Shown here piece after piece: positions 23,718-58,832 of a stretch of 64,000 nucleotides of DNA (positions are counted from its first letter, which is position 1; each line of letters starts with the position of its first letter). The notes under the pieces are model-generated. The model saw only the letters and a program-made list of their open reading frames with translations. It was not told the origin of the DNA and made no database searches. This stretch comes from a virus (Duplodnaviria; Caudoviricetes), in the IMG/VR virus record IMGVR_UViG_3300020045_018276, positions 6,491-70,490 of that record. One strand, 5' to 3'. A program made the translations under genes and the position numbers.

Positions 23718-24559
23718 TGGCAGTTACTCCTTTTCAATATTACGAAGGCGACGATTCCCAACACGGGAACTATCAATACGTTTCTGCTAAGGATATTCTC
23801 GACGCTATGGAATTTGAGGCGCTCGACGAGGATTCATATTTAAAAACGGTCCCGCGGTCAAAATTACTATATCATCTGCGGCAGGGAATAAAAGAAGTTA
23901 CGCGTCGTGCGGCAAATGAAATCCTGGCGATTGAATTTACGGTTCCGGATAATCTCGTATGGACTTTACCGCAGGATTATTTGGATTACAAACGCATTTC
24001 GGTAGTTGTGATGGAGAATGGAACGCGCAGATTGCAACCTCTTGATATTAATTCAAGTATCAATACTGGTACCGGTTATTTGCAGGACAATAACTGGAAA
24101 ATCCTTTTCGACAACAACGGTAAAATCCTTACTGCAGATTCGGCGAACGCATACGCTTTCCCTTATAAAACCTATGAATTCTGTGAGGCTGGCGGACAGG
24201 GAAATCTCGACACCTCAAAACTAAGCCAGTACGGTGAATTTAAAATCGACAAAAGACGCGGGAAGATTTTATTCAGCTCTCAATTATCTGACTGTGAAGT
24301 AGTGCTGGAATACGATTCTGACGGGTTACAGGCCGATTTGACCGATAGCGAAATCACGATCCACAAAGATATTGAGCAATGCGTAAAGGACTGGATTTAT
24401 ACTGAGGCGATTTCCATGAAAAGAAACGTTCCCGCAAACGAAAAGATGCGCGCGCGTCAACGATACAAAACCTCTTTACACCAATCGAAACTTGACCAAA
24501 TTGACCTCAATCTATTACAGATCAATAGGACTATGCGAACCAAAACTATGACTCCGTAA
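23717..24559 (+). CDS. tail ring protein 2
   Basis: GNYQYVS, LPQDYLDYKRIS, VVLEYDSDGL; coupled to the previous gene. Confidence 0.6.
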   Translation: MAVTPFQYYEGDDSQHGNYQYVSAKDILDAMEFEALDEDSYLKTVPRSKLLYHLRQGIKEVTRRAANEILAIEFTVPDNLVWTLPQDYLDYKRISVVVMENGTRRLQPLDINSSINTGTGYLQDNNWKILFDNNGKILTADSANAYAFPYKTYEFCEAGGQGNLDTSKLSQYGEFKIDKRRGKILFSSQLSDCEVVLEYDSDGLQADLTDSEITIHKDIEQCVKDWIYTEAISMKRNVPANEKMRARQRYKTSLHQSKLDQIDLNLLQINRTMRTKTMTP

Positions 24560-27500
24560 TGGCAAATACCCGCAGAACCTTCGTCCGGGGTAAGATGGAC
24601 AAAGATAATGACGAAAGGAGCTTGCCGGATGGCGCATACCGTCACGCCGAGAACGTCATCATATTAAACTCCGAAGGCTCGGAAGTCGGCTCGGTCCAAA
24701 ACTCTCTCTCGAACAAACAACTCACAAATTATGATTTCGGAACCAACGTCAAATGTAATCTTGGTTACTGCGACGAGGCCGAGGATAAAATCTATTGGTT
24801 CATTATTTCAAGCAACGGATGTTATCTTGTAGAATGGAATAATCGCAATACAGTTTTGTCAATTGTATTGGCAGATACCCGCGCAATCGGTTCACGTGTA
24901 TTGGATTTAAACGAAAACTTTCTTATTACCGGTATCGAAAAAATAATATCCGAAGACACCAAAGAAGATTTGTTGATTTGGACCGATGACAACATGGAGC
25001 CTTGCTGCGTGAATATCGAACGCGCGAAAACATGGCCCGTTAACGGATTCGTTGAAGAAGATATTTTACTTATTAAAAAACCGCCAAGATACGCTCCGAG
25101 CATATTGCCGATTTACTCGAATGAACTTAGTAATTACATTGAAGAAAAATTCCTTTCAATATCTTATCGTTACAAATACCGTGACGGTGAAAGAAGCGCG
25201 CTTTCCTCCTATTCAAACTACCAATTCAATCCAAAACCGTTTAAGTTAGACTACCAAACCGTAGAGAATTTGGGGATGGTCAATGCTTTTAACGCGATTC
25301 GTATTGGATTCAATACAGGAGAGCCACAAGTAACAGATATCGAAATCATTGTCAAGAACAGCAACTCGAACGCGTTATACTTGATCGCCTCATTCAATAA
25401 AATCAAAGAAGGATGGGCGGATAATGACCTGAAAAATATTTCATTCTCGAACAATAAACTTTACAGCGTACTAGCCTCCAAAGAATTGTATCGTGCATTT
25501 GATAATGTACCCCTGAAAGCAAAAGCACTGTCGCTAATCGGGAACCGTCCTGTATTTGGAAATTATCTTGAAGGCCGCGATATCGTCGACGCAAATAAAA
25601 ATAAAATCAAACTTGACTACGAGGTTGCACTGAACAGTGAAAGTATTGAAGGCACAGCGCTCACAACTTCATTTGAAGACGAATTCCTGACAATTAATAT
25701 TCCTTCCGATATTGTCTTGACGACCGGTAACAGGCTTTCGTTTACAATTGAAATGGAGTCGTTGTTGTATAACGGTAAATATAGTGCCGAATTCGACTAT
25801 ATCTTAACGGCTGATTTTGCCGATGCAAATGCATTGGCCGTCGACCCTGACTTTATCCAGTTTATTGAGATTGCCATTAAAAACGATTTCCTTCAGCGTT
25901 ACACTATTGATTTACTGACAGGATGGGTTTACGACTCGGAAGTTACATTTACGATAAGCGCATCTACATCAACATCAATTACCATACAAGGAATCAAATT
26001 AATATTCCAGGTTGACGACACGCCGCTTGACCCCGAAGATGATGTCTTTCATACGGAAGAAGTACAATTTAATTTCATCGCCGGAAACCTCGCTAAATAT
26101 TACAAGAATGAAAGCGTGTCTTCGTTGAAAACAAACCGCGATTACGAGGCGGCGATTATTTATCTCGATAAATACAATCGAAGCACTACCGTCTTGGCCG
26201 GATTCAACAATACTATTTATATCCAACAGAAATATTCAACAAGCAAAAACCGATTGCAATTAGCAATCAATCATCCTGCGCCGTATTGGGCAGACAGGTA
26301 CAAGATTGTTATAAAGCAACAGGAATTAAGCTACCAAACAATCTACGCTACAACTTTTTACGAGGACGGAATTTTTCGTTGGGTAAAACTTGACGGTGAA
26401 AATCACGACAAGGTAAAACAGGGAGATATCCTGATTTTGAAAAAGGGTCGATATGATGCTGCCGAAAACGTGATAAAAGTAAAAGTCATTGAGGTCGTTC
26501 AGCAGCCTGAAAATTTCTTAGGGACAAATGTTACTTCTTTCGGACTTCCAATAACTGAGCGCGCAGGACTATACATGAAGATTAAGCCAACTGGCTTTTC
26601 CATGAATTACGAAGAAGATGAATTTTATGCCTCCGCCGGCTACGGGGAAGCATCAAATGATCGTCCTTACGCATTCAGCCCATTATTTACAAAAGAAAAT
26701 CCTCCTGGAACTTTTACGGATATTCCTATTAGGGCCGGTTATGTAATTACCATCATTCTATCAAGCAGCGGACGAGGCGACACAGGCTACTTCGAGCACG
26801 ATTATATTGTCCAAAATGATTACGACAACATACAAGATTGGTTCATCGAAAATGTGCAAGGCACATTAATATTGGCGCATGAGGGCCAAGTCTATTCAAA
26901 TGTAAATATCGTCAGAGGCTTTGTCAACACTGCGTTTCAAGGAATTATCACAAGCTTGACTTATGCAGATCCGGGCTATTTATTTCTACAAGCGGAAGGC
27001 GTGATAGCCGGAAACGGAATGAAACGTAAGGGCTACCTGAATACATTGGTTACAATTAGGGCTTCCGACGCGATGTTCATTTTCGAAACCGAACCAAAAG
27101 TATCTGATAGTAACGTATATTACGAAACCGAAGAAACATTCGATATCATCAACGGAGAACATCAGGGAAATTTCGGTGTAACGCCAAATCAGGATATTGC
27201 GACCATGCAGCCCGCGAATCTATTGCTTGACTTTTTCAATTGCTATGTTCAAGGAAACGGCGCCGAAAGTTATCGTGTCAAAGACGCTTTACTGAAACCG
27301 TTTTTAAACGTCGATTTAAGACCTTCCGCAACTTCCGTGGAAGAATACAAAGCAGTGAGGAGATATGCTGACCTGACTTATGGGGAAGCGTTTATCGAAA
27401 GCACGAACATGAACGGGCTGAATGAATTTAATCTGTCTACCGGAAATTTCAAAGAACTCGACAAGCAATACGGCAGCATCCAAAAACTGATCAGCCGGGA

Positions 27501-29247
27501 CAATGACTTAGTTGTCTTGCAGGAAGAAAAATCATCAAAGGTACTGTTCGGTCGCGATGCTTTATATAATGCAGACGGAAGCGCAAACATCACTTCTATA
27601 AAAAATGTGCTCGGCGCCCAGGTGACTTATCTTGGAGAGAACGGAATCGGGAAGCATCCTGAAAGCGTTGCGGTTTACGATTATCAAATCTATTCCGCAA
27701 ATCCATTGAGAGGCGTCATGCAACGTCTTTCAATTGACGGTATTACGGAAATTGTCGATACCATGCTTGATTGGTGGAGGGACTTATTCAGGCTTCAGCC
27801 AAACGCGAAAATGATTGGGGCCATCGACCCATATCTTAAACAATACGTTTATTCGGTCGGAGAAGAACCGGTTCGCGTCTATGAATTGGAATGCGGGAAT
27901 ACGATTGTTAAAAATAATCAGTCGGAGCCGTTCACTTACACCTTGAATCTTAACGAAATGATTGGAGATATTGATTTTAACTACAATATCACCGAAGGAA
28001 ATGTTACGATAGTCGCCACGTACAATTCAATCGATACCGTTGTTTCAAATGTTACGGGCGAGGGAGTATTGACCATTTACAGAAATAATCTTTCAGTCGA
28101 TACCGTGACGATTACAATCACGCCTATATCTGACGCCGCGAGTTATGAAATTACAAACTTGTGTCCTGTCGGGATAGCGATGACAATTGTTTCTATGGTG
28201 GTTAATGATTCCGGTGACTTGACCAAGACAATAAATAACCGTTTCAGATGGAGCGGTGGCGCTTTCTTTAACTCGAACGATATCTTCGATGATGTCCCTG
28301 TAAGCAGATTCGATGTTGAGACGGGCGTTGAAGGGGTTGGTAAGTTTCCGGCCAGCGGTTCAATCGTTAATTTGCAAAGTTTTAAGGACGCTTCTGCGAC
28401 AGGATTATTGAATATCGAGCAATGCAACAGGATCGGGTACTTGGTTTCCTCAACTATCTATACTGATGCTGATTTTCAAACTATACTGGATGCCGCAACG
28501 TTTGTCTCCTTAACCACAACTACTCCGGGAGTCGGCACATCGCAAAGCTCAGGCAATTTCCTTTTCAACAGGACTGACCCAAGTGAAATACTTTATCTTA
28601 TTTGGGATTATACTGACCGCGCTCCTGTTCTTGTAGATGATAGCGTGGCTGTGGAAATCGGAGAAAGCTTTACAATCGACTCATTGCTTAATGACACAGG
28701 AGTCGAAGACGGAATTGTTACGATTGCCACCGAACCGGAACATGGAACCGCAGTAGTTAATGTAGACAATACAATAACTTACGAAAATGATGGTGAGGAT
28801 TTCACGTCCGATACGATTGTGTATCAGGTTTCCGATGGAGATTGTTCATCCCAAGCAACAATTACCATTAACATTTTTGATCCTAACAATTATTGTGTTG
28901 TATGGAATTCGGAAAATGCTGGAAATATTAAGATGGAATTGCAAGGTGAAATCAATTTATCTGAGCTTTTGGCCGGCAGAACTATTTCATTTGTTTCGGG
29001 TTCGATAACCGAATATAGAATTGACGGAGTTGACGTGCCGTGTTCAATACCGATGACGCATAATGCTACTAAACTGTTATTTGAAGAAAATGATTTACCG
29101 ACTGTAACCGACCGGGTATTGACCCAAATAACATTTAGCGCTGATATTATTTTTAATGACGCCTCCGAACTATCAATTTCAGGAATCAAGACGGCGGTTT
29201 CTATTCCTGGTGTTCAAATGACTGCTGAATATAACGACTGCGATTAA
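24559..29247 (+). CDS. tail nozzle/stabilisation protein with a C-terminal Ig-like (cadherin/Big) domain
   Basis: TFVRGKMDKDNDER N-terminus and LKTNRDYE typical of this class; DDSV...LLND...EPEHGT...TITY...YQVSDG Ig-like motif. Confidence 0.7.
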   Translation: MANTRRTFVRGKMDKDNDERSLPDGAYRHAENVIILNSEGSEVGSVQNSLSNKQLTNYDFGTNVKCNLGYCDEAEDKIYWFIISSNGCYLVEWNNRNTVLSIVLADTRAIGSRVLDLNENFLITGIEKIISEDTKEDLLIWTDDNMEPCCVNIERAKTWPVNGFVEEDILLIKKPPRYAPSILPIYSNELSNYIEEKFLSISYRYKYRDGERSALSSYSNYQFNPKPFKLDYQTVENLGMVNAFNAIRIGFNTGEPQVTDIEIIVKNSNSNALYLIASFNKIKEGWADNDLKNISFSNNKLYSVLASKELYRAFDNVPLKAKALSLIGNRPVFGNYLEGRDIVDANKNKIKLDYEVALNSESIEGTALTTSFEDEFLTINIPSDIVLTTGNRLSFTIEMESLLYNGKYSAEFDYILTADFADANALAVDPDFIQFIEIAIKNDFLQRYTIDLLTGWVYDSEVTFTISASTSTSITIQGIKLIFQVDDTPLDPEDDVFHTEEVQFNFIAGNLAKYYKNESVSSLKTNRDYEAAIIYLDKYNRSTTVLAGFNNTIYIQQKYSTSKNRLQLAINHPAPYWADRYKIVIKQQELSYQTIYATTFYEDGIFRWVKLDGENHDKVKQGDILILKKGRYDAAENVIKVKVIEVVQQPENFLGTNVTSFGLPITERAGLYMKIKPTGFSMNYEEDEFYASAGYGEASNDRPYAFSPLFTKENPPGTFTDIPIRAGYVITIILSSSGRGDTGYFEHDYIVQNDYDNIQDWFIENVQGTLILAHEGQVYSNVNIVRGFVNTAFQGIITSLTYADPGYLFLQAEGVIAGNGMKRKGYLNTLVTIRASDAMFIFETEPKVSDSNVYYETEETFDIINGEHQGNFGVTPNQDIATMQPANLLLDFFNCYVQGNGAESYRVKDALLKPFLNVDLRPSATSVEEYKAVRRYADLTYGEAFIESTNMNGLNEFNLSTGNFKELDKQYGSIQKLISRDNDLVVLQEEKSSKVLFGRDALYNADGSANITSIKNVLGAQVTYLGENGIGKHPESVAVYDYQIYSANPLRGVMQRLSIDGITEIVDTMLDWWRDLFRLQPNAKMIGAIDPYLKQYVYSVGEEPVRVYELECGNTIVKNNQSEPFTYTLNLNEMIGDIDFNYNITEGNVTIVATYNSIDTVVSNVTGEGVLTIYRNNLSVDTVTITITPISDAASYEITNLCPVGIAMTIVSMVVNDSGDLTKTINNRFRWSGGAFFNSNDIFDDVPVSRFDVETGVEGVGKFPASGSIVNLQSFKDASATGLLNIEQCNRIGYLVSSTIYTDADFQTILDAATFVSLTTTTPGVGTSQSSGNFLFNRTDPSEILYLIWDYTDRAPVLVDDSVAVEIGESFTIDSLLNDTGVEDGIVTIATEPEHGTAVVNVDNTITYENDGEDFTSDTIVYQVSDGDCSSQATITINIFDPNNYCVVWNSENAGNIKMELQGEINLSELLAGRTISFVSGSITEYRIDGVDVPCSIPMTHNATKLLFEENDLPTVTDRVLTQITFSADIIFNDASELSISGIKTAVSIPGVQMTAEYNDCD

Positions 29248-32611: not shown

Positions 32612-35600
32612 ATGGCACTAAATCCAAATAATAGAAAGCCTTTAAATTTAAGTGGCGCCAAAGAAATATTGGACAGCGATGAACGTCCGGCATTAAATCT
32701 GTCTGGCGCTCAGGAAATCTTAAAAAAAAAAGATATTTCTATTTCGTCAGAACAAGCGACCGTATCGGAATCGAATGCAACGGTTATTTCTTCGGGCGAA
32801 TCAAAGTCTGATTTACCTTTATCATCACCTTCAAAATACAAGGAAGGTTCGATGGCTTGGAACCAGGAGAAGTTAAAACAAAACGTTTCCGGCTACACTT
32901 CCATTTTCGATAAATTCCAAGAAACCCAAAAAGTATCGGACGAACGCCAAAAAGAAATTGCGCTTGAAGTTGAAGCCGAATCTAAAGACGAAGGTATATT
33001 CAACAACCTTATCAAATACGGTAAACGTACCGCTAACGCATTGGCTGATACGGTTACCGCTACACTCACTTTAGGGACAAACGGAGAGAGCCCAATCAGA
33101 TTCGAGGAAGATACCTTGAAATCTGAAAAGGAAACAGCGCGCAAGGAATTACTCAAAGAAGCCGCTATTGCAAAGGCAAAGAAAGAACCGGTTCCTGAAA
33201 TCTCAAAGGAAGCTATTACAGCCAAAGCGAAAGAAATTGCTATCGCCAAACGCATCAAATCTGAAAGTAAAAGTCAGGTTCGCGATTTTCTGCAGGACAT
33301 TCCGGACGCAGATAAAACCGATCTGACAAAATTCGCGGTCCAGGAATACGCAACAATCAAAGAAGACGAGAAACTTAACCTGAAAAAACAGAATGTTTTA
33401 CAGTCAGAAATCGATTTGAGCCTGTCTAAAATCAACGATTTAAACAAAACGGTATCTCAGTATAAAAATAATCCTGAAGCAATTCCTGACGACTTAAAAT
33501 CCGAATACCAATCTGAACTAAAAAAGTATCAGGTATTGGTTTCCGACGCTATACAAACGCAGAAAGAATTCATTTCCAACGAAAAGGATTTGGGAGATAT
33601 GCGGGAGAACGTCGATATTTTTAAAAGGAATTATGGTAAACTTCGAAACTTCGTGAATAACGTCGACGCTACAATCGGCGATATCTCAGCGGGAGTTTTC
33701 GGCGCAGTCGATTACGCGAACAAAGCTTCGGAATATGTATTTGGAGAAACTGAAATGACCCGTCGTCGCGGAGAAAATGCAAAAGCCATTTATCAGTCTT
33801 TAAAATCTGATGCCGATGAAGCGCGCGCGGAAATTATGAAGCCGTTATCGGTCGACGATATTGAAAATGCTTCTGACTTCGGTAGTTGGTTTTCAAATAC
33901 AGTACTTGCGAATCAAATCCCAATATATGGACTCGTTGCGACTGGCGCTCCGGGAATCGCTGCAATTGGAGGTTATTCGACGGGTGAAAAGTTTGAGGCG
34001 ATGCAGGAAGAAATGAAATCGGGAGAACAGAATTACTCCGACGAACAAATGCTGGGAATTCCGGCTGGATTTGGCGTTACGGAAACTGCAAGCGCAATGG
34101 TCGACAGATTGCTTTTGGGTAATGCGTCAAGGGTAATCCGTAGCGCAACGGCACCGGAACGTACAATGATGGCGAAAAGCATTTGGGACAGTGCGAAAAA
34201 TATCGGAGGCGCTTCACTAAAAGGCGGATTGCTGGAAGGTCTTGATGAATCAGGAACTCAGGTTGCCCAAAACATTCTCGACAAATATGCAGGAGACAAA
34301 AACATTCAATTGCTCAATGGAGTAAAGGATGCGGGAACAGCAGGAACGGTTATGGGCATGCTCTTGCCTTTCGGTTCAAATCTTGTTGCCGAAGCTATCA
34401 AACCATTCTCAACAGATACGAAAATACAAAAAGCCTCGGCGCAGATACTCGCTTACGAAAGCCAACTTGATAATAAGGAAATAAGCGACACTTCCCGAAA
34501 AACAATCGAATCGCAACTTGACAAAACCAAGTCGGACGTAAAAACTTTGCTTGAAAAGAAAATCAAGAACATCGGCAATCTTACAGATGCTCAGTTTTCC
34601 GAAGTAATGCGTCTTGAAAAAGCACAGGCAAATATTAAAAATCAGGTGCGTGAAGTATTATTGGACGATGCTTTGTCTGAAGATATGAAAAAGCAACTGA
34701 CAGGTGATTTGAAAACCGAATTCGAAGCCAACGATCAAAGGCGTATTGATTTGGTCGAACGCGGAGGCAATCGCGAATTGAATAAACTCGGCGACGAAGA
34801 ATTGATTATCGCTAAAGACCAAGCCGCGCGTAAATTGATGAAAGAATTGAATCCTGACGGCACGAAATCAATCACATTAACCGACGAGCAGATTACGAAG
34901 AAAGCTGGTGAAATGCTGGCTGAGAAGAATGCGAAACGTGAAGCGAAAGAAAATCCTGTTGTTGAAGAAAGCGCTCCGATTGTGAACGAGACGATAAACA
35001 CGAATATCGAAAATGAAACAATACCGAACCAAAATCCTATTCCTGATGGAAACGTTCAGCCTGACGCTGGAATCGTGGAGCAAAACAGAAATGCTGTCGA
35101 AGAAAATACTGAAACAGAAAACGTTTCCGAGTCCGTTGACACCGCAGCAGCTACGAGTGAAGTTCAAAATGTAAAGGAAGTCACGGTCGGGAAAGGAGCT
35201 TTTTCAGGAACTTTCAGTATTGAAATCACTCCCGAAGGCAAACAAAAAATTACAAAAAAAGACGGAACTGAAATTCCTGAGTTTGTTGAGCGTAAGATTA
35301 AGCAACGTGGCGTCGATAAGCCGAAAACTAAGATTGTAAAAAATCCTACTTACGCAAAGATTTGGGCCGAAGCAAATAATACCTTGACCGAAAACCAAAT
35401 TAACGAAGAACGCAAGAAAAATTACAATGAGGCGCTTAATAATACCGAGCCAACAACGCCTTATGAAGTAGCCGCGCGCGCAATTGCTAATGGGCAGAAA
35501 ATCAATCGCGAAAGTGTTGCCAGAGAAACCGGCGATGGTAAAAATAGGACTTGGGTTACAGGACTCGGAAATAACGAGTCGGCTCCGTCAGTTGAAGTGC

Positions 35601-38600
35601 TGGCCGAACAATTAGCAGAAGCTAATCCGCAAATCGAAGCCGATGGTACAAATTTCCGCGACGCAATTCTTGAAGTTATCGGAGGCCACAATAATATCGA
35701 CGATGTTCGCGACGGCATCATTGAAAATTATCAAAGAGGCAATGATCAATACTACGGACTTTCCGAGGAAGAACAAATTTCCGCTTATAAAGGCAGTTTA
35801 TCGGAAGAAGAATTATCTTTGTTTGAATCGAAGCAATTTGACGATTACGTTGATTCGCTTCCTGAGAACGAAAAAGTAAAATATTATAAACAAGAATATG
35901 CAAAACAACTCGAATCCCTCGACCCCGACCAACAACGAGCAATCCACGAACAGTACGAACTCGACGAGCAGCAACGACAAGGATTATCTTCTGCGAATCA
36001 AGGGGATGAAGTTAGCGATAGCGGAATCGGCGCGGAAAGCGAAGAAAGCGGGAGGCAGTCAGAACAAGAAATAGACGACGAAGCCGAATCCGCTACTCAA
36101 GGAATGTCTTTCAATAACGACAATCGTCGTGATTTGACAGGTAAAGGCCGAATCCGCGATTTATTAAGCCGTCAGCGTAAGTTCAGAAAACTTTGGAACA
36201 ATACCTTTAAAAGCAATGCTGGACTCGATACGCGTGTCGCTGAAACTTTCCGTTCAAGAAACCGTGAGATTTCAGCTTTTACCGACGCGCTGGATTACGA
36301 AACAGGATTGTTTAAAAATCTTCTCGACAAAGTTCGCAAATCAAATCCGAAAGACTACATCAAAAATTCACTGGCGATTAACGATTATCTTGCGGGTGAC
36401 TCAAATGCCGTACCTTTTTTAAATACTGAACAAAAAGCGCAACTCGATTATTTCCGAGAAAGGATTGATATTCTTTCGGAAACAATTTTGGATAAGCTCG
36501 ACACAAAACTTACTGATTTACAGACTCGGCTTGCATCAGCCACAAGTCCGGTTGCACAATCTTCTATATCCGGTTCCGTTGAAAGAACCCAAAATCTCAT
36601 CGATACAATCCGAAACAACAAAGGAACTTACCTTAACCGCTCGTACCAAATCTTCGTCGATGATAGCTATTCCGAAATTATAACCGAGAAGAACAATGAA
36701 ATCAGCATCGAAGGCCGCGATAAAATCAAGAACGCGGTTGATTACCTGGTCCGCGAAGAAGGTTATTCGAAAAAAAATGCCGAAGAATACATTGCTGATT
36801 ATCTCGACGGAATCCGAAAAGCAAAAAATGATTTCTCATTCATATCTTCAGGAAAGGCCGACGCTCCGTTTTTGAAGAAAAGGAAAGATTTGCCTGTGGA
36901 ATTCCGCGAACTTTTAGGCGAGGCGAAAGATCCGATTTATAATTTCGTGAACACTGTTTACAAATTAAGTAACTATGTGGCAAATCTCGAATATCAGGAC
37001 AGGATGCGCACTACTTTACTTGACACGGATATTGGTAAGTTGGCTCCGGAACAAGGTTATACAAAACTCACAAGCGATGGTGACGGCTGGCAGACATTAA
37101 GCGATGTTTACGTTCCGAAAGATGTAGCCGAAGCCTTAAACGAAATGGCGCCGTTAGCAAGAGTCGACAGCGGATTTTACCAAGCGTGGATTAAGATTGC
37201 AGCGGCGACAAAAATCGGAAAGACAATCTTATCGCCGACGACTACTTTCCGGAACCTTTACAGCGGCGTATTTTTAGGCGTCAATGCGGGCCACTTCTTT
37301 CTATCAAGTCCAAAATATACCGCACAAGCATTTAATCAGGGACTCGGAACTGACCGCTCACAAACCAAACTGAAATCCGAGCGTCAGAAATTAATCAAAC
37401 TCGGCGTATTGAATGATGGTGGAAATGCCGGAGAAGTTATGGCGATCGTAAATGATTTCAGCAAGGAAACCGACCGTATGGTTAAGACCAATAAATTCCA
37501 ATATTCATTTGACGTGCTGAAAAAACTCTATGCGTTCGGTGATGACTTCTATAAAACAGCAGGATTCTATATTGAGAAGGAAAGGTTTATGAAAACCGGA
37601 ATGAATGAAGCTGATGCGGAGGTAAAATCAGCCGAAAGAATCAGAAACTCTTATCCGACGTATTCGTACATCCCGAAGAATTTTCAGCGCCTTAGAAGGC
37701 TTCCTGTTGTTGGGACATTTGTTTCGTTTCCTTATGAAATGGTACGGACCACAAAAAACAACTTGCTTTTCATTAAGGAGGATTTTGAACAGGGCAGAAA
37801 AAAGATGGCCGCGCAACGTGCCGCAGGATTGATTATTGGTAACGCGACATTATTCGGACTCAGTGCATTTACACGAAGTCTTATCGGATTTGATGACGAG
37901 GACGATGACGCGGTCCGCGACATGCTTCCGCAATGGCAAAAGAATTCCAAATTGATTTACACGGGCACAAAAAACGGCAAACCTACATTCGTGGACGGCA
38001 CCGCATTATTTCCATCAGAGGTCGTGATGAAACCATTATCAATTTTATTTGAAGACCGCGCCGGACGTGATAAGGACGACAAAATTCAGGAAGCTGTCTA
38101 TGAAGCGATTTCCCCTTACATCGGACTAGATATTTCGTTCAAGACAATAATGGGATTGATTAACAACCAAAACGAGTACGGCGAACCAATTTACAAAGGC
38201 GACAATATTGCTGAAGGCGCCGTAAACAGTCCTGATAAAATTACGAATTATTATCTCAAGCAAGCTGGTCCTGGCGTTTACAATAACATTTCAGAATTCA
38301 TGCGCGCCAATGAAATCATGCCTGAAACTTTCGGTGATAAATTCGCGTCATACGGCAAAGAGTACACAAATAAGGAAGCGGTGCTCGGATTATTGGGATT
38401 CAGGATTTCCACGATTAATTACAGTAATGGAATCACAAGTTTCGGTTACGGCGTAAAAGATGAATACGATATTGACCGCAAGGAAATGGTAGCCAAGATG
38501 AAAGGTTCTGAAAAACTTACTGTTGCGGAAGTTGCTAAAATCGCTTCTGATTACAAGAAAACGAATGAGGAAGCTCTTGAGAAAATAGGAAATATAATTA

Positions 38601-38920
38601 CGGCCGGCACCAAACTCGGAATGACTCAGGTTGAAATAAAAGACGCGTTGATCCGTTCGGGTTATTCAAAAGGCGACGCATTACTTTTGACTTTAGGAGG
38701 CAAGCCGGCGCCGAAGCCTGTATCTGCAAAATCTGAAAGTAACCAAAAAGAAAAGCTGACTGTGAGCTATGGAAAAGATAAGGCCAAGCCGCTTATCGAC
38801 GTGTATGACCACAATCTCAGTTTGCTTGAAATAGAACTCCGGAAAATAAACGAAAAGGATATTCAGGAAAATTCGGCGCTATTGAAGAAGTATTCGACAG
38901 ACCTGCGTTCTAAGAGATAA
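32612..38920 (+). CDS. large internal virion (ejection) protein, 2102 aa
   Basis: size, helical composition, TM-like segments; C-terminal region (FRNL, GDDFYK, GTFVSFPYEMVR) like large phage ejection proteins. Confidence 0.65.
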   Translation: MALNPNNRKPLNLSGAKEILDSDERPALNLSGAQEILKKKDISISSEQATVSESNATVISSGESKSDLPLSSPSKYKEGSMAWNQEKLKQNVSGYTSIFDKFQETQKVSDERQKEIALEVEAESKDEGIFNNLIKYGKRTANALADTVTATLTLGTNGESPIRFEEDTLKSEKETARKELLKEAAIAKAKKEPVPEISKEAITAKAKEIAIAKRIKSESKSQVRDFLQDIPDADKTDLTKFAVQEYATIKEDEKLNLKKQNVLQSEIDLSLSKINDLNKTVSQYKNNPEAIPDDLKSEYQSELKKYQVLVSDAIQTQKEFISNEKDLGDMRENVDIFKRNYGKLRNFVNNVDATIGDISAGVFGAVDYANKASEYVFGETEMTRRRGENAKAIYQSLKSDADEARAEIMKPLSVDDIENASDFGSWFSNTVLANQIPIYGLVATGAPGIAAIGGYSTGEKFEAMQEEMKSGEQNYSDEQMLGIPAGFGVTETASAMVDRLLLGNASRVIRSATAPERTMMAKSIWDSAKNIGGASLKGGLLEGLDESGTQVAQNILDKYAGDKNIQLLNGVKDAGTAGTVMGMLLPFGSNLVAEAIKPFSTDTKIQKASAQILAYESQLDNKEISDTSRKTIESQLDKTKSDVKTLLEKKIKNIGNLTDAQFSEVMRLEKAQANIKNQVREVLLDDALSEDMKKQLTGDLKTEFEANDQRRIDLVERGGNRELNKLGDEELIIAKDQAARKLMKELNPDGTKSITLTDEQITKKAGEMLAEKNAKREAKENPVVEESAPIVNETINTNIENETIPNQNPIPDGNVQPDAGIVEQNRNAVEENTETENVSESVDTAAATSEVQNVKEVTVGKGAFSGTFSIEITPEGKQKITKKDGTEIPEFVERKIKQRGVDKPKTKIVKNPTYAKIWAEANNTLTENQINEERKKNYNEALNNTEPTTPYEVAARAIANGQKINRESVARETGDGKNRTWVTGLGNNESAPSVEVLAEQLAEANPQIEADGTNFRDAILEVIGGHNNIDDVRDGIIENYQRGNDQYYGLSEEEQISAYKGSLSEEELSLFESKQFDDYVDSLPENEKVKYYKQEYAKQLESLDPDQQRAIHEQYELDEQQRQGLSSANQGDEVSDSGIGAESEESGRQSEQEIDDEAESATQGMSFNNDNRRDLTGKGRIRDLLSRQRKFRKLWNNTFKSNAGLDTRVAETFRSRNREISAFTDALDYETGLFKNLLDKVRKSNPKDYIKNSLAINDYLAGDSNAVPFLNTEQKAQLDYFRERIDILSETILDKLDTKLTDLQTRLASATSPVAQSSISGSVERTQNLIDTIRNNKGTYLNRSYQIFVDDSYSEIITEKNNEISIEGRDKIKNAVDYLVREEGYSKKNAEEYIADYLDGIRKAKNDFSFISSGKADAPFLKKRKDLPVEFRELLGEAKDPIYNFVNTVYKLSNYVANLEYQDRMRTTLLDTDIGKLAPEQGYTKLTSDGDGWQTLSDVYVPKDVAEALNEMAPLARVDSGFYQAWIKIAAATKIGKTILSPTTTFRNLYSGVFLGVNAGHFFLSSPKYTAQAFNQGLGTDRSQTKLKSERQKLIKLGVLNDGGNAGEVMAIVNDFSKETDRMVKTNKFQYSFDVLKKLYAFGDDFYKTAGFYIEKERFMKTGMNEADAEVKSAERIRNSYPTYSYIPKNFQRLRRLPVVGTFVSFPYEMVRTTKNNLLFIKEDFEQGRKKMAAQRAAGLIIGNATLFGLSAFTRSLIGFDDEDDDAVRDMLPQWQKNSKLIYTGTKNGKPTFVDGTALFPSEVVMKPLSILFEDRAGRDKDDKIQEAVYEAISPYIGLDISFKTIMGLINNQNEYGEPIYKGDNIAEGAVNSPDKITNYYLKQAGPGVYNNISEFMRANEIMPETFGDKFASYGKEYTNKEAVLGLLGFRISTINYSNGITSFGYGVKDEYDIDRKEMVAKMKGSEKLTVAEVAKIASDYKKTNEEALEKIGNIITAGTKLGMTQVEIKDALIRSGYSKGDALLLTLGGKPAPKPVSAKSESNQKEKLTVSYGKDKAKPLIDVYDHNLSLLEIELRKINEKDIQENSALLKKYSTDLRSKR

Positions 38921-46840: not shown

Positions 46841-47227
46841 TTATTTTAAGAGTTCTGGATTTTCGTAGATGTTGCCGATGACTTCGCTTTGAGCCATCCA
46901 TTCTGCCATGTAAAGTGAAGATTGTGTTTCTGAAACGGTGACTTCAAAAGCATGGTCTTTTCGAACTACTACGCCCCAATTGTCGTTGATCGTTTTTATA
47001 ATATCACCTTCGAAAATATCTTTACCATTTTTATCCTTAATTCCTATGAATTGCAGAAATTGAACATTCTCACCATCGTCGCCAAATTCATCTTCATTTT
47101 GCTCAAACTCCATAACTCCCGCCAATAAATATGATTTATCAGCTTCCGAACTTGACGTTAGATATCCTTTGGATTCAAACCGTTTGGTGTAATTATTCCA
47201 AACTTTAAATTTTATTCTATTTTCCAT
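46841..47227 (-). CDS. YopX-family protein
   Basis: IKFKVWN, QFIGIKDKNGKDIFEGDI, EVIGNIYENPELL. Confidence 0.9.
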   Translation of the reverse strand: MENRIKFKVWNNYTKRFESKGYLTSSSEADKSYLLAGVMEFEQNEDEFGDDGENVQFLQFIGIKDKNGKDIFEGDIIKTINDNWGVVVRKDHAFEVTVSETQSSLYMAEWMAQSEVIGNIYENPELLK

Positions 47228-47520
47228 TACTTCTGATTTAAATGTAAATACTCGTCCAAATCGCTTTGGTGAATTAAATAATGCTTTCCAGGTCGACTTG
47301 CTTTTAAAAGTCCAATTTTGATATGTGCCCGAAGCGTCGCTGTTTTGATTCCTGTGATGTTATGTGCTTCCCGAATGCTTAAAACTGCGTCTTTGACAAT
47401 TGGCTCAGGTTTGATTTCCTCGACGGGCTTGCGTTCGTCCTGAATAGCGACAACTTCTTCTGCAATGGCTCTGATTATTTTTTTATCGTTGGGGTCGTTT
47501 GGATCGAGTTGAAATTTCAT
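47227..47520 (-). CDS. excisionase-like HTH_17/MerR-type DNA-binding protein
   Basis: LSIREAHNITGIKTATLRAHIKIGLLKASRPGKHYLI. Confidence 0.75.
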   Translation of the reverse strand: MKFQLDPNDPNDKKIIRAIAEEVVAIQDERKPVEEIKPEPIVKDAVLSIREAHNITGIKTATLRAHIKIGLLKASRPGKHYLIHQSDLDEYLHLNQK

Positions 47521-47545
47521 TTCGGTTAATTTGATTTGTTATGTT

Positions 47546-47572
47546 AAAAAAAGGCGGAATGTCGTTCCCGCC
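47546..47572 (-). terminator. intrinsic terminator ending the tmRNA coding piece
   Basis: GGCGGGAACGACATTCCGCC followed by T7 on the minus strand. Confidence 0.85.
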
Positions 47573-47812
47573 GGACGTAACCTTTATGCAGCGACTTCTA
47601 AAGCCTCTGGGTTAAGTTGGATAACTTTTGCGGTTATCGTTAAAATGCTTCTCCGAGTCACATACTATTCTGCTGTCAAAACCAATCGACCCCTAAATTT
47701 TATAATCGGCGGGCAAGGCATAACTACAAACCTTAACCTTTAGGAGTGGAATCGGCGGGAATCGAACCCGCGTCCAAACAGATTTCTATGACACATCAAC
47801 AAAACATTTTTC
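47546..47812 (-). ncRNA. ssrA: circularly permuted (two-piece) tmRNA
   Basis: minus-strand order: helix-2 strand + T-arm GCGGG-TTCGATT-CCCGC + 3' acceptor CGATTCC-A (ends 47747); 53-nt intervening segment; 5' end GGGGTCGATTGGTTTTGAC (starts 47693); tag ORF 47631-47584 after ATAACC. Confidence 0.88.
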
Positions 47813-47816
47813 TATT

Positions 47817-47960
47817 TCAATTTTTTAAAAAGATTCTTACTATTTCATCCCATTGCCAATAACCAATAATTATTAATGCTGAGATTATTACTACGCACCG
47901 GAAAATGATATTTATCGTTCTTGGACTCCAATCGTTTCGGTCTTCGTTGTAGGTGCTCAT
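47817..47960 (-). CDS. small single-TM protein (47 aa)
   Basis: manual translation MSTYNEDRNDWSPRTINIIFRCVVIISALIIIGYWQWDEIVRIFLKN; ATGA coupling. Confidence 0.55.
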   Translation of the reverse strand: MSTYNEDRNDWSPRTINIIFRCVVIISALIIIGYWQWDEIVRIFLKN

Positions 47961-48271: not shown

Positions 48272-49009
48272 TTATTGGTTGGTGAATTGAATTTTTTGAA
48301 CCGGCGCCTGTATTACGCCCATCGTTTTAGCGATGTAGCCAAGTCCTTTTTGAGTAACAAGCGTCTGCATGGAGATTTTCTCATTCCCTGCGCCGTTACG
48401 CCACTTCTTTTCTTTGATTTTGAAATAGCCGCGGTCGATGAATTCCTGCCTCGGCTCGTTGGTAGTTTTGAATAGAACGCCCTTTTCCCGTAATGTTTTG
48501 AAAAGGTTGTTCCGGCCAACAGGGAGATTCAATATTTTAGCAACCTGACCCATCGTAATAAGGTCATCGGATTTAAAAACCAAGTCGACGAATTCAGATC
48601 GTGGCCTCAATTTTGTATTCTCAGCAAGCAATAATTCATTTTTATTAAGCAAGTCCAAATTAAGAATCAACGACTCTTTTAATGTGATTTGTTTAGGCGC
48701 CGAAGACTCCCTTAAAGCCTTTTCACATTCAATAAGGTATTTTCTAATATTGCGGCCTTCTTCACTTCTTTGCAGCATAGAAATCTCTTTTGCTGTATCA
48801 GTAGTCAAAGCATAATCTTGAAGGTGTTGATTTGCAAGGGTGTTAAAAGTTTTACACCCTACGTAATCCCTATCTTCTTCAAAGCCGTATTGCAGTTGAC
48901 GATTAAACCAACTCTGGAATCTTTCCGATACATTTAGCGCGGAATGCAATTCCCTTGCAGAAACTACTTGATTTCCGTCCTGTTCTGTGATTTTGATTAG
49001 CTGGTTCAT
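48272..49009 (-). CDS. antirepressor (AntA N-terminal + KilAC/ANT C-terminal domain)
   Basis: VSARELHSAL, DYALTTDTAKEISMLQ, GRNNLFKTLRE, QTLVTQKG. Confidence 0.9.
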   Translation of the reverse strand: MNQLIKITEQDGNQVVSARELHSALNVSERFQSWFNRQLQYGFEEDRDYVGCKTFNTLANQHLQDYALTTDTAKEISMLQRSEEGRNIRKYLIECEKALRESSAPKQITLKESLILNLDLLNKNELLLAENTKLRPRSEFVDLVFKSDDLITMGQVAKILNLPVGRNNLFKTLREKGVLFKTTNEPRQEFIDRGYFKIKEKKWRNGAGNEKISMQTLVTQKGLGYIAKTMGVIQAPVQKIQFTNQ

Positions 49010-49400: not shown

Positions 49401-50219
49401 ATGGAAACAATTGCAGAAAGGTTGCAATATGCCCGAAAACAAAAGGGATTGTCGTTTAAGAATCTTGGCGAGATGGTTGGTGTTAGCGGGGATGCTATCA
49501 GAAAGGCAATCGATAGAAATTCAATAAAAGCATATCATTTAAATATTATATCTGAAAAACTAGGCCTTTCAAAGGAATGGCTTGAACACGGAACTGGCGA
49601 TATGCACGGCAGAAAACCCAACGACATCAATTCCGTCATCGACTACTTCAAATCACAACCACAGCCGAATGACCTAAAAGTAAAGGACCCGTTGGAAATG
49701 GATTATTCCGATAAGGACGTAAATCAGCATCTAAAAGTAGGAGTGGATCAATACGTTATGATCATGCCGTTACTCGGTTATTCTGCGCAGGCAAGTTTCC
49801 CGGATCACTTTCAAGATGCAGAATTTATTGGTGACCTCGAAAAGCACAGTATCGTCGTGAATCAAAAGGCGCCGCCGCAGGGAAGATATTTTGCGTTTAG
49901 GGTAAAAGGCAATAGTATGGATAACGGTGTTGCTGGGGAAGCTATTCAGCAGGGAAACATTGTGACAGGCCGGGAACTGCAGCAGCACCATTGGAAGAAT
50001 AAACTGCATTTGAATAAATTTAAGAACTGGGTTATTTACACGACGAAAAGCTCAATGCCGCTTGTGAAGGAAATTATCAGCCACGATGTGGAGAGTGGAA
50101 TAATCAGATGTCGATCATTAAATACCGCGCCGGAATACCAAGATTTTGACCTGTCGCTGAATGATGTGACAGGTCTTTTTAATATCGTAAATGTAAGTTG
50201 GAAACCAATTGACGGATAA
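49401..50219 (+). CDS. CI-like repressor (XRE HTH + S24 peptidase domain)
   Basis: RLQYARKQKGLSFKNLGEMVGVS; AQAS cleavage-site region; FRVKGNSM; LVKEI. Confidence 0.9.
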   Translation: METIAERLQYARKQKGLSFKNLGEMVGVSGDAIRKAIDRNSIKAYHLNIISEKLGLSKEWLEHGTGDMHGRKPNDINSVIDYFKSQPQPNDLKVKDPLEMDYSDKDVNQHLKVGVDQYVMIMPLLGYSAQASFPDHFQDAEFIGDLEKHSIVVNQKAPPQGRYFAFRVKGNSMDNGVAGEAIQQGNIVTGRELQQHHWKNKLHLNKFKNWVIYTTKSSMPLVKEIISHDVESGIIRCRSLNTAPEYQDFDLSLNDVTGLFNIVNVSWKPIDG

Positions 50220-55375: not shown

Positions 55376-56662
55376 CTATTTTAATTGTTTATCCCAAGCG
55401 GCCTTCAATTCTTTCGCTGCGTCCATATTCGATTGCTGCAAGTAGTTCATCATCATTTCAGTAGTTGACCAGCCGCATATCTCGCAAAGGCTCTTGTTTG
55501 AAATCTTGCCGAAATTATTGGTCGCGAAACTTCTTCGTCCGGTATGCGAGCTTACAAGCTTATATTTCGGGTACAATTTTACGACTTTCCTTTTAACTTT
55601 GGAAATCGGATCGACTTCTGAAATTCCGCCCATCATCATTTCATCGAATTCGAGAACCTGGCAAACCTGTTTTACGCGTTTATTAAACTTTTGGTCGCTG
55701 ATTTTCGACGGTAGTTGTCCGTGACGTTTCAATAATATCGCTTCGACGTGTTTGTGGATTGGAATAACGACATTTGCGCCAGTCTTTTGGGTTTTAATAC
55801 TGATATACCCGTTTGAGAAATTTGACGTGTCCAGTCGCCTGAGAAAGTCACTTACCCGAAGCCCCGTTAAACAGGCAATAGCAAAATTGTCGCGCGCATT
55901 GTCAAGTTCGTCGCTGTAACTGAAATCATATTTCACCATTCGCTCAATCTCATATTCACTAAGGAATGCCTTTTTGAAATTCTCAGGTTCGGTCTGTACG
56001 AAAACCCTTTGCTGGTAATTTTTATTCACGGTAATATTTTCCGACTCGGCACGTGCGCAAAAGAATTTAAACCTGCCAATCATTCTTTTTGAAGTAATCG
56101 CCGCATAACCTTCACTTGCCAAGAACTGGGAGAATTTATCCATCACCTCGACAGTTACGTTCCGGAGCATGATTTTATCCTTTCCCTCGAATTTTTTAAT
56201 AATTTCATTCAGGATTTTATAATGGCCGATGGTTTTCGCATCCATGTACTTTCCGGCTTTCACTTTCCATGTCGGCGCTTTTTCTTTAAGCCAAAAATCC
56301 GCGAATGGAGTCAGGTAAATATCCTTGTCATTATTCTTCAATTTCACTTCATCTTTCGGCCGGTTGAAGAACTTGCTGATTTTTGCAGTGAGCCAGTCGC
56401 CGTTAATAATCTCACCGTTCATATAATCGAGGTTGAACTCGTCGATGATGAAAATTTCAAGCTTGGCCAGGTGCTGGTTAATCTGATCACGATTCTGGCA
56501 GGCGATAACATCACGTACCCTTTGCGTTTTCGGATTCCAATGTTCCCGCATGATTATAAGGTTCGTGGAACGCGTGAAATCTGCGCCTCTGCCTACTGAA
56601 AAGCGAAGGAAGATTTTAACCGGATTCGATTTACCTTGTATGGAGTAGTTTGTGGTTGCCAT
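55376..56662 (-). CDS. int: tyrosine integrase with Bacteroidota arm-binding and SAM-like domains
   Basis: CLTGLRVSD (R), KTQKT (K), SHTGRRSF (HxxR), GWST...YL. Confidence 0.95.
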   Translation of the reverse strand: MATTNYSIQGKSNPVKIFLRFSVGRGADFTRSTNLIIMREHWNPKTQRVRDVIACQNRDQINQHLAKLEIFIIDEFNLDYMNGEIINGDWLTAKISKFFNRPKDEVKLKNNDKDIYLTPFADFWLKEKAPTWKVKAGKYMDAKTIGHYKILNEIIKKFEGKDKIMLRNVTVEVMDKFSQFLASEGYAAITSKRMIGRFKFFCARAESENITVNKNYQQRVFVQTEPENFKKAFLSEYEIERMVKYDFSYSDELDNARDNFAIACLTGLRVSDFLRRLDTSNFSNGYISIKTQKTGANVVIPIHKHVEAILLKRHGQLPSKISDQKFNKRVKQVCQVLEFDEMMMGGISEVDPISKVKRKVVKLYPKYKLVSSHTGRRSFATNNFGKISNKSLCEICGWSTTEMMMNYLQQSNMDAAKELKAAWDKQLK

Positions 56663-57856: not shown

Positions 57857-58060
57857 CTACCGCTTGCTAAACTACAATAAAATACAATAAAAACATCATT
57901 TATTGTAGATTAATTTTACGAAGTGTTATTTTTACTAGTGTTTAGTGATGTTTAATAGTGTAATTTGGTGAAGGTTCGAATCCCATCGAGGTCACAGAGG
58001 GCGCTTGATTATCAATTAGTTAGGCGCCTTTTTTGTAAAAAACATCAACCAAACTCCAAC
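57840..58060 (+). repeat. 15-bp direct repeat CAACCAAACTCCAAC flanking attP (putative integrase arm sites)
   Basis: identical copies at 57840-57854 and 58046-58060. Confidence 0.65.
57973..57995 (+). mobile_element. attP core: 3' end of a host tRNA
   Basis: GGTTCGAATCCCATCGAGGTCAC is a T-loop plus 3' acceptor strand with no matching 5' half; followed by a hairpin-U-tract containing TTGATTATCAA; about 1.3 kb from int. Confidence 0.75.
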
Positions 58061-58832
58061 CGCTATGTTCTTTTAAATTGTCAAATTCTTGAATCGCTTG
58101 AAAAATCTTATAAGCTATTTCCGGAACTATGGCGTTTCCGTATCCGTGGAGTTGCTCCCTAACCAATTTTCCGGATACCCCATTATCCACGCATATAGCT
58201 GGGGGTTCACTCGACCAGAAACCGCCCCGAAAAGTCTGTACAAGTGTTCCGAGGTTCCTCCAGGGCTTCTGTGATGCCTTCTCGTGAACATTGGAAAAGA
58301 AAGTTTGTCTCTGTTGCATTCTGATGCTGTTGGGGTAAGCAACGATATACAGCCTGGCGCGGTGATGGATGGCACCGACTTCTGAAGCTCTACAAACTCT
58401 CCATTCTGCATTATACCCCATTGCGGATAGTTCGGCGAGAATTGCGCTAAAATCTGATCCGCCGTTAGTCTTAAGAATATTAGCCACGTTTTCGGCGACA
58501 ATGTACTTTGGCTGGATTTCTCGAATAGCTCGGCAGAACTCATAGAACAATCCTGTTCTTTCGCCTTGAAGCCCCTGTTGACCTTTACCGTCTTGTTTCG
58601 CGATGCTTGCGTCCTGACAAGGGAATCCTCCAGTAAGAACATCGCATTTTCCTCGGTAAATTGTAAAGTCTGTTGTTGAAATATCTCCGTGTCCTTTTGC
58701 ATTTGGAAAGTTTTTATAAAGTTGTTTTTGTTTTGACTCAATCCACTCGCACCATGCGACCGTTTCCCAATTCATCCAACGGGCGGCAAGGGAAAATCCG
58801 CCAATTCCTTCAAATAATCCGATGTGTTTCAT
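58020..58832 (-). CDS. C5 DNA cytosine methyltransferase (alpha-like subunit, lacks motif IX)
   Basis: LFEGIGG (I), GGFPCQ (IV), ENV (VI), HHRARLY (VIII), GNAIVP (X). Confidence 0.9.
   Translation of the reverse strand: MKHIGLFEGIGGFSLAARWMNWETVAWCEWIESKQKQLYKNFPNAKGHGDISTTDFTIYRGKCDVLTGGFPCQDASIAKQDGKGQQGLQGERTGLFYEFCRAIREIQPKYIVAENVANILKTNGGSDFSAILAELSAMGYNAEWRVCRASEVGAIHHRARLYIVAYPNSIRMQQRQTFFSNVHEKASQKPWRNLGTLVQTFRGGFWSSEPPAICVDNGVSGKLVREQLHGYGNAIVPEIAYKIFQAIQEFDNLKEHSGWSLVDVFYKKGA
58127..58741 (-). CDS. nested alternative-frame ORF, putative methyltransferase beta subunit
   Basis: 204-aa ORF wholly inside the MTase; LLTPTASE and GRVNPQLYAWIMGYPENW (motif IX-like). Confidence 0.65.
   Translation of the reverse strand: MSQNKNNFIKTFQMQKDTEIFQQQTLQFTEENAMFLLEDSLVRTQASRNKTVKVNRGFKAKEQDCSMSSAELFEKSSQSTLSPKTWLIFLRLTADQILAQFSPNYPQWGIMQNGEFVELQKSVPSITAPGCISLLTPTASECNRDKLSFPMFTRRHHRSPGGTSEHLYRLFGAVSGRVNPQLYAWIMGYPENWLGSNSTDTETP

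Follow-up and report, generated by a model that had tools for sequence, protein, structure and literature searches.

A predicted circularly permuted, minimal tmRNA of a Bacteroidota phage and its apparently phage-only family

A 64,000-nucleotide (nt) stretch of the IMG/VR record IMGVR_UViG_3300020045_018276 (the window) carried on its minus strand an element whose features support its assignment as a phage-encoded, circularly permuted, minimal transfer-messenger RNA (tmRNA) gene of a Bacteroidota phage. The tmRNA releases stalled ribosomes; in its textbook form it is 350–400 nt long with four pseudoknots, while the known two-piece forms are attributed to three clades of bacteria and the phages infecting them. 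Between 47815 and 47546 on the minus strand, an acceptor piece was followed by a spacer and then by a coding piece, i.e., in permuted order. The gene is probably a working phage ssrA, its product being a tmRNA of about 210 nt in two pieces and without pseudoknots, which would rely on host proteins for trans-translation.

ARAGORN called a permuted gene (tmRNA*) at 47493–47838 (minus strand) with the tag AKVIQLNPEALEVAA, the same tag as had been read in the original prediction, in which the gene was proposed from the letters alone; all sequence features listed there were found on the minus strand where they had been placed. The Rfam model RF04321 (tmRNA_permuted, Rfam 15), a merger of RF01849, RF01850 and RF01851, matched at 68.2 bits, compared to a gathering score of 47 (E = 5e-11), over model positions 1–213 of 213. 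The three clade models failed: alpha_tmRNA (RF01849) gave 26.2 of 50 bits over model positions 68–185 only, beta_tmRNA (RF01850) 35.9 of 84 bits, and cyano_tmRNA (RF01851) 30.8 of 70 bits over positions 38–137 only. A known permuted tmRNA usually scores higher with its best clade model than with RF04321 (PMC11915505). The one-piece model RF00023 produced partial matches of 29.6 and 23.9 bits, below its cut-off of 47 and in permuted order. In the alignment with RF04321, the pseudoknot-1 hairpin (model positions 133–149) was deleted in the window, where only 10 nt separated helix 2c from the resume codon. The parts of the gene, all on the minus strand, were as follows.

47747–47810, minus strand: acceptor piece in its minimal extent, from the 3′ strand of helix 2c to the discriminator A73 (sequence, RF04321 alignment, ARAGORN)
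47802–47810, minus strand: 3′ strand of helix 2c, AAAATGTTT, with its trans partner AAGCATTTT at 47642–47650 (minimum free energy (MFE) cofold, family pairing)
47793–47801, minus strand: internal-loop strand TGTTGATGT, family consensus CGTTGA, opposite TCGGAG at 47651–47656 (near-invariant alignment columns)
47787–47792, minus strand: 3′ strand of helix 2b, GTCATA, with its partner TGTGAC at 47657–47662 (cofold, family pairing)
47777–47782, minus strand: 3′ strand of helix 2a, TCTGTT, with its partner AGCAGA at 47669–47674 (anchored pair count, family pairing)
47755–47771, minus strand: T arm, GCGGG / TTCGATT / CCCGC (sequence, RF04321 alignment, family covariation)
47747–47754, minus strand: 3′ strand of the acceptor stem, CGATTCC (47754–47748), and discriminator A (47747) (sequence)
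47694–47746, minus strand: spacer of 53 nt holding GTTTGTAGTTATGCC...CCCGCCGATTATAAAAT, a stretch common to the relative L010 (sequence, alignment)
47546–47693, minus strand: coding piece, about 148 nt, beginning with G1 and ending with the U tract of the terminator (sequence, ARAGORN, RF04321, terminator scan)
47675–47693, minus strand: 5′ strand of the acceptor stem, GGGGTCG (47693–47687), and D-loop analogue ATTGGTTTTGAC (sequence, RF04321 alignment)
47642–47674, minus strand: 5′ strands of helices 2a (47669–47674), 2b (47657–47662) and 2c (47642–47650), with the GGAG loop (47651–47656) (cofold, family pairing)
47620–47638, minus strand: hairpin GATAAC-CGCAAAA-GTTATC with the resume codon GCA in its loop (cofold, family pair counts)
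47584–47631, minus strand: tag frame AKVIQLNPEALEVAA, 15 codons, with the resume codon GCA at 47631–47629 and the stop codon TAA at 47586–47584 (ARAGORN)
47593–47605, minus strand: hairpin inside the tag frame, GGCUU-UAG-AAGUC (single-sequence fold)
47546–47572, minus strand: post-stop hairpin GGCGGGA-ACGACA-TTCCGCC (47572–47553) with U tract, an intrinsic terminator (terminator scan, family sequences)

The acceptor stem had seven base pairs (G1-C72, G2-C71, G3.U70, G4.U69, U5-A68, C6-G67 and G7-C66). The acceptor piece is at least 64 nt long; its 5′ end was not sharply set and could extend to about 47815. After the discriminator only C74 (47746) was encoded and CA was absent, so that CCA is not encoded. 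The 53-nt spacer is presumably cut out at maturation.

Scanning IMG/VR with the tmRNA 5′ motif yielded 119 loci, of which about 36 had the same permuted layout. One member has been cultured, the Maribacter phage Panino (GenBank PP540027.1, 27557–27889), with an RF04321 score of 62.2 bits and an ARAGORN tmRNA* call. A scan of 185,579 prokaryote species, one genome each, gave one true permuted match, on a 5.8-kb contig of an Aequorivita (Flavobacteriaceae) metagenome-assembled genome (MAG); another match, in a Muribaculaceae MAG, was rejected, being a tRNA-Ser followed by a normal one-piece tmRNA. Among 151 sampled Flavobacteriaceae genomes, 144 had a standard one-piece tmRNA of about 395–400 nt (111–170 bits), in agreement with the original statement that Bacteroidota ssrA is one-piece, which holds for cells, and one, the Aequorivita MAG contig, had the permuted form. 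The family is apparently conserved and restricted to phages. Proteins were typed on three other contigs bearing it: the best matches were Flavobacterium phages FL-1 and FCV for the first, Cellulophaga phages phiST and phi13:1 and Tenacibaculum phage Larrie for the second, and F. columnare phages for the third. These differing matches imply that the tmRNA family occurs in at least four unrelated lineages of Flavobacteriia phages. The window and its closest relative (L010) were 80% identical in the tmRNA and had almost nothing in common in the flanking genes, which suggests selection on the RNA itself. Among 50,697 GenBank phage records, the only blastn matches to the gene were 38 nt long and lay in the T arm; megablast of 24 kb around the gene gave nothing, and a related-locus search seeded with the downstream helix-turn-helix (HTH) protein gave no relatives.

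RF04321 detected every member tested, including 13 of 13 further relatives at 49–68 bits, and ARAGORN missed or mis-tagged roughly 40% of the members examined (no call for L013, L015, L021, L028, L081, L098 and L104; wrong tag for L038, L055, L063, L106 and L107). The distance from G1 to the resume codon was 58–66 nt across the family, which leaves no room for pseudoknot 1, and CCA was encoded in only 3 of 34 members. The spacer ranged from 18 to 172 nt. In 8 of 32 members, compared to 0.24 expected (P about 2e-10), a Bacteroidota −7 box (TAnnTTTG) preceded the T stem by 45–53 nt, and about ten other members stood directly behind a tRNA gene; either arrangement defines the 5′ end of the acceptor piece in those members.

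The structure was tested on A1, a MAFFT alignment of 15 family members based on sequence only, for trans helices 2a, 2b and 2c, the T arm, the acceptor stem and the hairpin around the resume codon. Standard pairs were formed by 84.5% of the A1 cells, compared to 68.7% in shuffles and 46–50% in slid registers; 24 of the 34 pairs had changes on both sides, and the covariation score was 0.48, compared to 0.19 in controls. None of 500 shuffles reached any of these three measures. Unaided, RNAalifold recovered the acceptor stem, T arm and helix 2a from A1, with compensatory changes in 10 of 21 pairs. An alignment-free comparison gave −11.5 kcal/mol for cognate acceptor and coding pieces and −8.7 kcal/mol for mismatched ones (permutation p < 1e-4). 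For the window, the cognate pairing (−15.7 kcal/mol) was the best of 33, with a mean of −8.3 for the other 32 coding pieces.

Individual helices behaved similarly. The T arm was 100% paired across the family, with covariation. Helix 2a was 91% paired in A1 and, when anchored by position, 85% paired compared to 38–55% in shifted registers; helix 2b was 79% paired with both-side changes in all six pairs; and helix 2c (columns 21–25/202–206) was 75% paired with both-side changes in four of five. The loop between helices 2b and 2c was conserved on both strands, GGAG standing opposite GUUGA, and possibly forms tandem G.A pairs. The two strands of the acceptor stem covaried (A1 pairs 74/165 and 75/164), as in the change from CGATTCC/GGGGTCG to CAATTCC/GGGGTTG between phages, and G3.U70 was present in 34 of 34 members. 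Covariation among homologs in Bacteroidota phages and prophages, here seen in the acceptor stem, T arm and all three trans helices, was one of the checks proposed with the original prediction.

The same data bear on the possibility that the element is an integration-site relic, in which the acceptor piece is a phage attachment site (attP) that duplicates the 3′ end of a host ssrA, while the 5′ half is a pseudogene in decay or DNA captured from the host. Many temperate phages integrate into tmRNA genes, the window phage carries an integrase and a CI-like repressor as temperate phages do, and the authors describing Panino treat its tmRNA solely as a possible integration-site copy (PMC11590407). 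However, the 5′ and 3′ strands of the acceptor stem covary between phages, the 5′ half and a tag frame are present, and the layout, the tag and the three trans helices are kept in at least four unrelated phage lineages, including at locations in tRNA clusters. Moreover, the integrase lies 8 kb away, the acceptor stem of the window (with G4.U69) was unlike every host-type sequence seen, and an attP fragment followed by aberrant excision would yield the normal and not the permuted order. Covarying halves and a layout that recurs in unrelated phages and tRNA clusters make such a relic highly improbable. A search for lysogens did not find the phage terminase in 401 sampled Flavobacteriaceae genomes.

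The mRNA-like part was also conserved. In the window the resume context was ATAACC|GCA, with GCA 62 nt after G1, and the frame ended in GCT GCA TAA. An open tag frame was present in 32 of 33 relatives checked, starting after xTAAxx and ending with a small residue and a stop; about two thirds of the relatives’ tags were exactly 15 codons long. The C-termini were AA, VA or TA in most relatives and AS, AV or FA in a few, and the family consensus of the tag was xKVIxLFxxP[LV]R[AL][AV]A. The conserved frame and stop, together with the -AA, -VA and -TA endings of most members, argue that the tag frame is read.

Three hairpins overlapped or followed this frame. RNAalifold predicted no pairs in the tag region, and the hairpins there were then assessed by explicit pair counts. 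In the xKVI subfamily, an upstream GAUAAC pairs with the codons GUU AUC and so places the resume codon in a 7-nt loop; this hairpin was specific to the subfamily (62–71% paired across the family), and its basal pair covaried (G-C, A-U, U-A). The hairpin within the tag frame was 80% paired in the family with both-side changes in three of four pairs, and took the form CCAG-UUAGA-CUGG or similar in relatives, in a register off by one base. The loop of the post-stop hairpin, RCGAMA, i.e., (G/A)CGA(A/C)A, was kept in the family, and a hairpin with this loop was seen at the same position in L015, L023, L028, L053, L104, L123, L081, L038 and L010. It doubles as a terminator in some members, the window included, while others have a separate terminator after it. 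Pairing of the terminator loop (CGACA) with the GUUGA internal loop was considered and ruled out, as by eye the members with a CGAAA loop keep GUUGA.

A rival to a working tmRNA is a decoy or inhibitor without productive use of the tag frame, which would bind host SmpB, alanyl-tRNA synthetase (AlaRS) or the ribosomal A site and block or divert host trans-translation. Mycobacteriophage DS6A provides a precedent, as its tmRNA, reduced to the tRNA-like domain (TLD), inhibits endogenous E. coli tmRNA (PMC11915505, PMC4131195). The missing pseudoknot 1 of the window, the share of tag-frame conservation that RNA hairpins explain, and the lack of a phage SmpB, which means that the RNA must compete for the host protein, would all fit this alternative. 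A pure decoy has no use for a frame, however, and DS6A has lost its tag, whereas in nearly all members checked the frame is unbroken and similarly long, mostly with AA, VA or TA before the stop and with the xTAAxx context, and the resume codon is displayed in a hairpin loop or a single-stranded stretch. The conserved tag frame makes the decoy the less likely explanation, and we regard it as unlikely.

Several observations nevertheless weigh against a working tmRNA. Pseudoknot 1 matters for tagging in E. coli, and it is absent from the window. The overlapping RNA hairpins can account for much of the conservation of the tag residues, which is therefore no proof of selection on the peptide. No SmpB gene was encoded by the phage. 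The G4.U69 wobble beside G3.U70 was found in only 2 of 34 members, one single-sequence measure, the folding energy, was not significant (z = −1.36), and the acceptor stem was missing from the MFE structure predicted for the precursor. The promoter scan found no sigma-70 promoter above chance near the gene, as expected for Bacteroidota, and the Bacteroidota TAnnTTTG box was absent both upstream of the gene and within its spacer. Finally, processing, charging, use of SmpB, tagging, timing and benefit are all inferred.

The source record was 70,490 bp long with direct terminal repeats, which indicates a complete phage genome. Its terminase (56% identity), portal (44%) and major structural protein (46%) had matches only in Flavobacteriaceae phages; its hosts are taken to be marine members of this family. 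By these proteins the nearest relatives were the Cellulophaga baltica podophages phi18:3, phi46:3, phi13:2 and phi19:3 (Pachyviridae, Baltivirus), and farther ones were the Flavobacterium “elemo” phages, Tenacibaculum phage Gundel and Maribacter phage Panino. A complete genome with proteins of Flavobacteriaceae phages and a deleted pseudoknot-1 region thus bears out the original description of a phage-encoded, permuted, minimal tmRNA in a Bacteroidota phage. Genes relevant to the setting of the tmRNA were as follows.

55376–56662, minus strand: tyrosine integrase (phrog_1, E = 5e-19), about 8 kb from the tmRNA
49401–50219, plus strand: CI-like repressor, divergent from the tmRNA operon (phrog_4, E = 2e-13)
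48272–49009, minus strand: antirepressor (AntA and KilAC; Pfam PF08346, PF03374), upstream within the tmRNA operon
47227–47520, minus strand: HTH_17 / excisionase-like DNA-binding protein (Pfam PF12728; phrog_66), directly 3′ of the tmRNA terminator
46841–47227, minus strand: YopX-family gene near the tmRNA

The integrase and the CI-like repressor indicate that the phage is temperate. The minus-strand operon (49215–39185) comprised a small open reading frame (ORF), the antirepressor, a 100-aa ORF, the tmRNA, the HTH/excisionase-like gene, the YopX gene and, further on, an exonuclease. From this gene order, the tmRNA appears to lie on the early lytic side of a lysogeny switch. Expression in the early operon, which had been proposed at the outset, is thus consistent with the gene order and the divergent CI-like repressor, while promoter scans of the window found none to go with it. 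A strong intrinsic terminator (47553–47572) stood in mid-operon, directly upstream of the excisionase-like, YopX and exonuclease genes, and expression of the genes beyond it may need read-through or antitermination. Two YopX genes (344–622 and 3325–3582) also lay near the tmRNA in the otherwise unrelated contig L010.

This terminator raises the possibility that the RNA is a working tmRNA with a mainly regulatory role, in which the terminator splits the early operon or the tag gives proteins a fate other than degradation. The position of the terminator, between the antirepressor side and the excisionase-like/YopX/exonuclease side of one operon, would suit such a role, as would a tag that is conserved in the family yet unlike the host GENNYALAA. 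A role tied to this operon could not hold for the whole family, however, as other members are located in tRNA clusters or different surroundings, and we consider a mainly regulatory function quite unlikely. A working rescue RNA stays the preferred interpretation.

Two-piece tmRNAs of phages are already published for the OM43 phage Melnitz, pelagimyophages and cyanophages (PMC9004378); among 133 unique phage tmRNAs, Buchholz et al. listed 53 that ARAGORN called permuted, mostly marine (PMC9004378). As in the window, these aquatic-phage forms have a permuted ssrA on a phage, with early expression and support or redirection of trans-translation proposed for them (PMC9004378). A comparison set of 105 mainstream permuted phage tmRNAs sampled from IMG/VR had ANDE..ALAA tags, a resume codon at a median distance of 85 nt from G1 and an encoded CCA in 87 of 105, in contrast to the xKVI..R.AA tags, 58–66 nt, CCA in 3 of 34 and Bacteroidota hosts of the window family. 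With the classical two-piece tmRNAs the window shares a TLD and helix 2 assembled in trans and a break downstream of the tag; it differs from the Alphaproteobacteria, betaproteobacterial and Cyanobacteria forms in having no pk1-region hairpin, an unencoded CCA and no cellular lineage that carries it, the 5.8-kb MAG contig being its one occurrence in 151 Flavobacteriaceae genomes.

Panino was the closest described counterpart, with the same order of acceptor piece, spacer and coding piece, the loop motif GTTCATTGA, a AAGAGAAC / ATAACT-GGT context and a Flavobacteriaceae host; its tag was GKVMNVSFAPTVRQFA, and its 5′ motif was GGATTTGAC, compared to GGTTTTGAC in the window. Its gene lies inside a cluster of 15 tRNA genes, unlike that of the window in a lysogeny-switch operon. 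The GenBank record labels it “transfer-messenger RNA SsrA”, and neither the record nor the paper mentions permutation or an absent pseudoknot (PMC11590407). Cellulophaga phage phi4:1, the only Bacteroidetes phage listed as “Permuted” in Table S1 of PMC9004378, was rejected as a precedent and is probably a false positive: its ARAGORN tmRNA* call (L162:11919–12580, NC_021788.1) covers tRNA-Tyr, tRNA-Ser and tRNA-Asn and has no RF04321 match. A database of tmRNAs holds 24,380 standard and 48 permuted calls for 29,415 Bacteroidota genomes, the permuted ones being undiscussed (PMC11915505). No paper linking permuted tmRNA to Bacteroidota or their phages was found in the searchable literature. The novelty originally claimed was overstated, given the published phage two-piece tmRNAs (PMC9004378), the annotation of the Panino member in GenBank and an Rfam model that detects the family; the family itself was not found described as such in searchable papers.

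The window also shared traits with the one-piece tmRNA of Bacteroidota, i.e., the 5′ end GGGGnnGAyUGGUUUUGAC-AGC (UGGUUUUGAC-AGC), the lead-in GUUUGGAC to the T arm, a helix 2a that starts with A-U / G.U / C-G, and a C74 without encoded CA. The host form differs in its length of 393–400 nt, in its tag GENNYALAA from about nt 96 and in having room for pseudoknots. One-piece tmRNAs are known from the flavobacterial Cellulophaga phages Calle and phi38:1 (PMC8776804), which agree with the window in host family, 5′ motif and related podophage genomes, but have the normal order, 86.6 bits with RF00023, 320–450 nt and long tags such as AQIEANMEAVNAILNLEVAVGV. The IMG/VR loci likewise held a second, larger family of one-piece phage tmRNAs with the Bacteroidota-type 5′ end and long conserved tags, e.g., ANAQIEANMNKVFSLLGEEVAVAA (L016, L025, L030, L031, L036, L057, which is Calle_2, L070, which is phi38:1, and about 30 more). 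Flavobacterial phages thus carry both gene forms.

An independent permutation lineage, as originally suggested, would fit the failure of the clade models and the Bacteroidota-type traits. These traits could, however, reflect host adaptation rather than ancestry, and helix 2 was uninformative, with identities to host-type, phage one-piece and alpha-type sequences all at 0.52–0.62 and no ancestry signal. We infer an independent origin, early expression and tagging activity. In its fullest form the interpretation would be of a fourth, independently arisen, phage-restricted two-piece lineage derived from a Bacteroidota-type tmRNA, pseudoknot-free yet working, by which flavobacterial phages seize ribosome rescue with a tag of their own, the pseudoknots being replaced by an extended trans helix 2 (with the GGAG/GUUGA loop) and three hairpins (resume, tag-frame and post-stop RCGAMA). 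This combined proposal is tentative, and the chances are somewhat against all of it holding together.

If the RNA works as a tmRNA, a transcript would run from upstream of about 47810 to the terminator at 47553–47546, probably by read-through from the early operon. The first-encoded 3′ acceptor strand would pair with the later-encoded GGGGTCG, and helices 2a, 2b and 2c would clamp the halves. RNase P would cleave 5′ of G1, the 3′ trailer past A73 would be trimmed, and the host CCA-adding enzyme would complete the CCA, as in the host tmRNA, where CCA is also unencoded. With loss of the 53-nt spacer, an acceptor piece of about 64 nt would be left base-paired to a coding piece of about 148 nt. 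Host AlaRS would charge the molecule through G3.U70, and host SmpB and EF-Tu would deliver it to ribosomes stalled on broken mRNAs. Translation would resume at GCA (47631), adding (A)AKVIQLNPEALEVAA, a phage tag unlike the host GENNYALAA, and would stop at UAA. The likely benefit would be a supply of free ribosomes for the phage while, in the course of infection, decay of mRNA and defences that cut RNA produce many non-stop messages. Such an RNA may supplement or redirect host trans-translation, as the original prediction supposed.

The family would represent a minimal tmRNA made by nature, with two pieces totalling about 210 nt and no pseudoknot 1, and it is apparently confined to phages whose host phylum itself has a one-piece tmRNA. 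If tagging takes place, the family would define the natural minimum of elements that suffice for trans-translation. As Maribacter phage Panino is cultured, a tractable system would then be available, and it could address why phages bring a rescue RNA and whether the phage tag alters the fate of proteins.

A few minor features of the locus were also recorded. The spacer motif GTTTGTAGTTA was common to the window (47715–47732), L010 and L028, and a looser GTTTAnAG occurred 10–20 nt past the discriminator in many members (A1 columns 100–112); this element may act in processing or represent a weak −7-like box. A candidate promoter inside the spacer, GGTTTG TAGTTA, matched only five of six −7 box positions and was conserved in three close relatives only. 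In one relative (L029:3480–3844, minus strand), a complete tRNA-like gene lay within the intervening spacer, echoing the single case of a tRNA-Ala in the spacer of a two-piece tmRNA (PMC11915505). Elsewhere in the window, the structural arm of the phage included a 2102-aa protein at 32612–38920 (plus strand) and a 1562-aa protein at 24559–29247 (plus strand), and a C-5 cytosine DNA methylase gene lay at 58020–58832 (minus strand). A mechanically called ORF of 70 aa (47531–47743, plus strand) ran antisense to the tmRNA, as did the Panino “hypothetical protein” PANI_CDS0067 (PP540027.1 27669–27818); both are most likely spurious calls arising from an unrecognised RNA gene.

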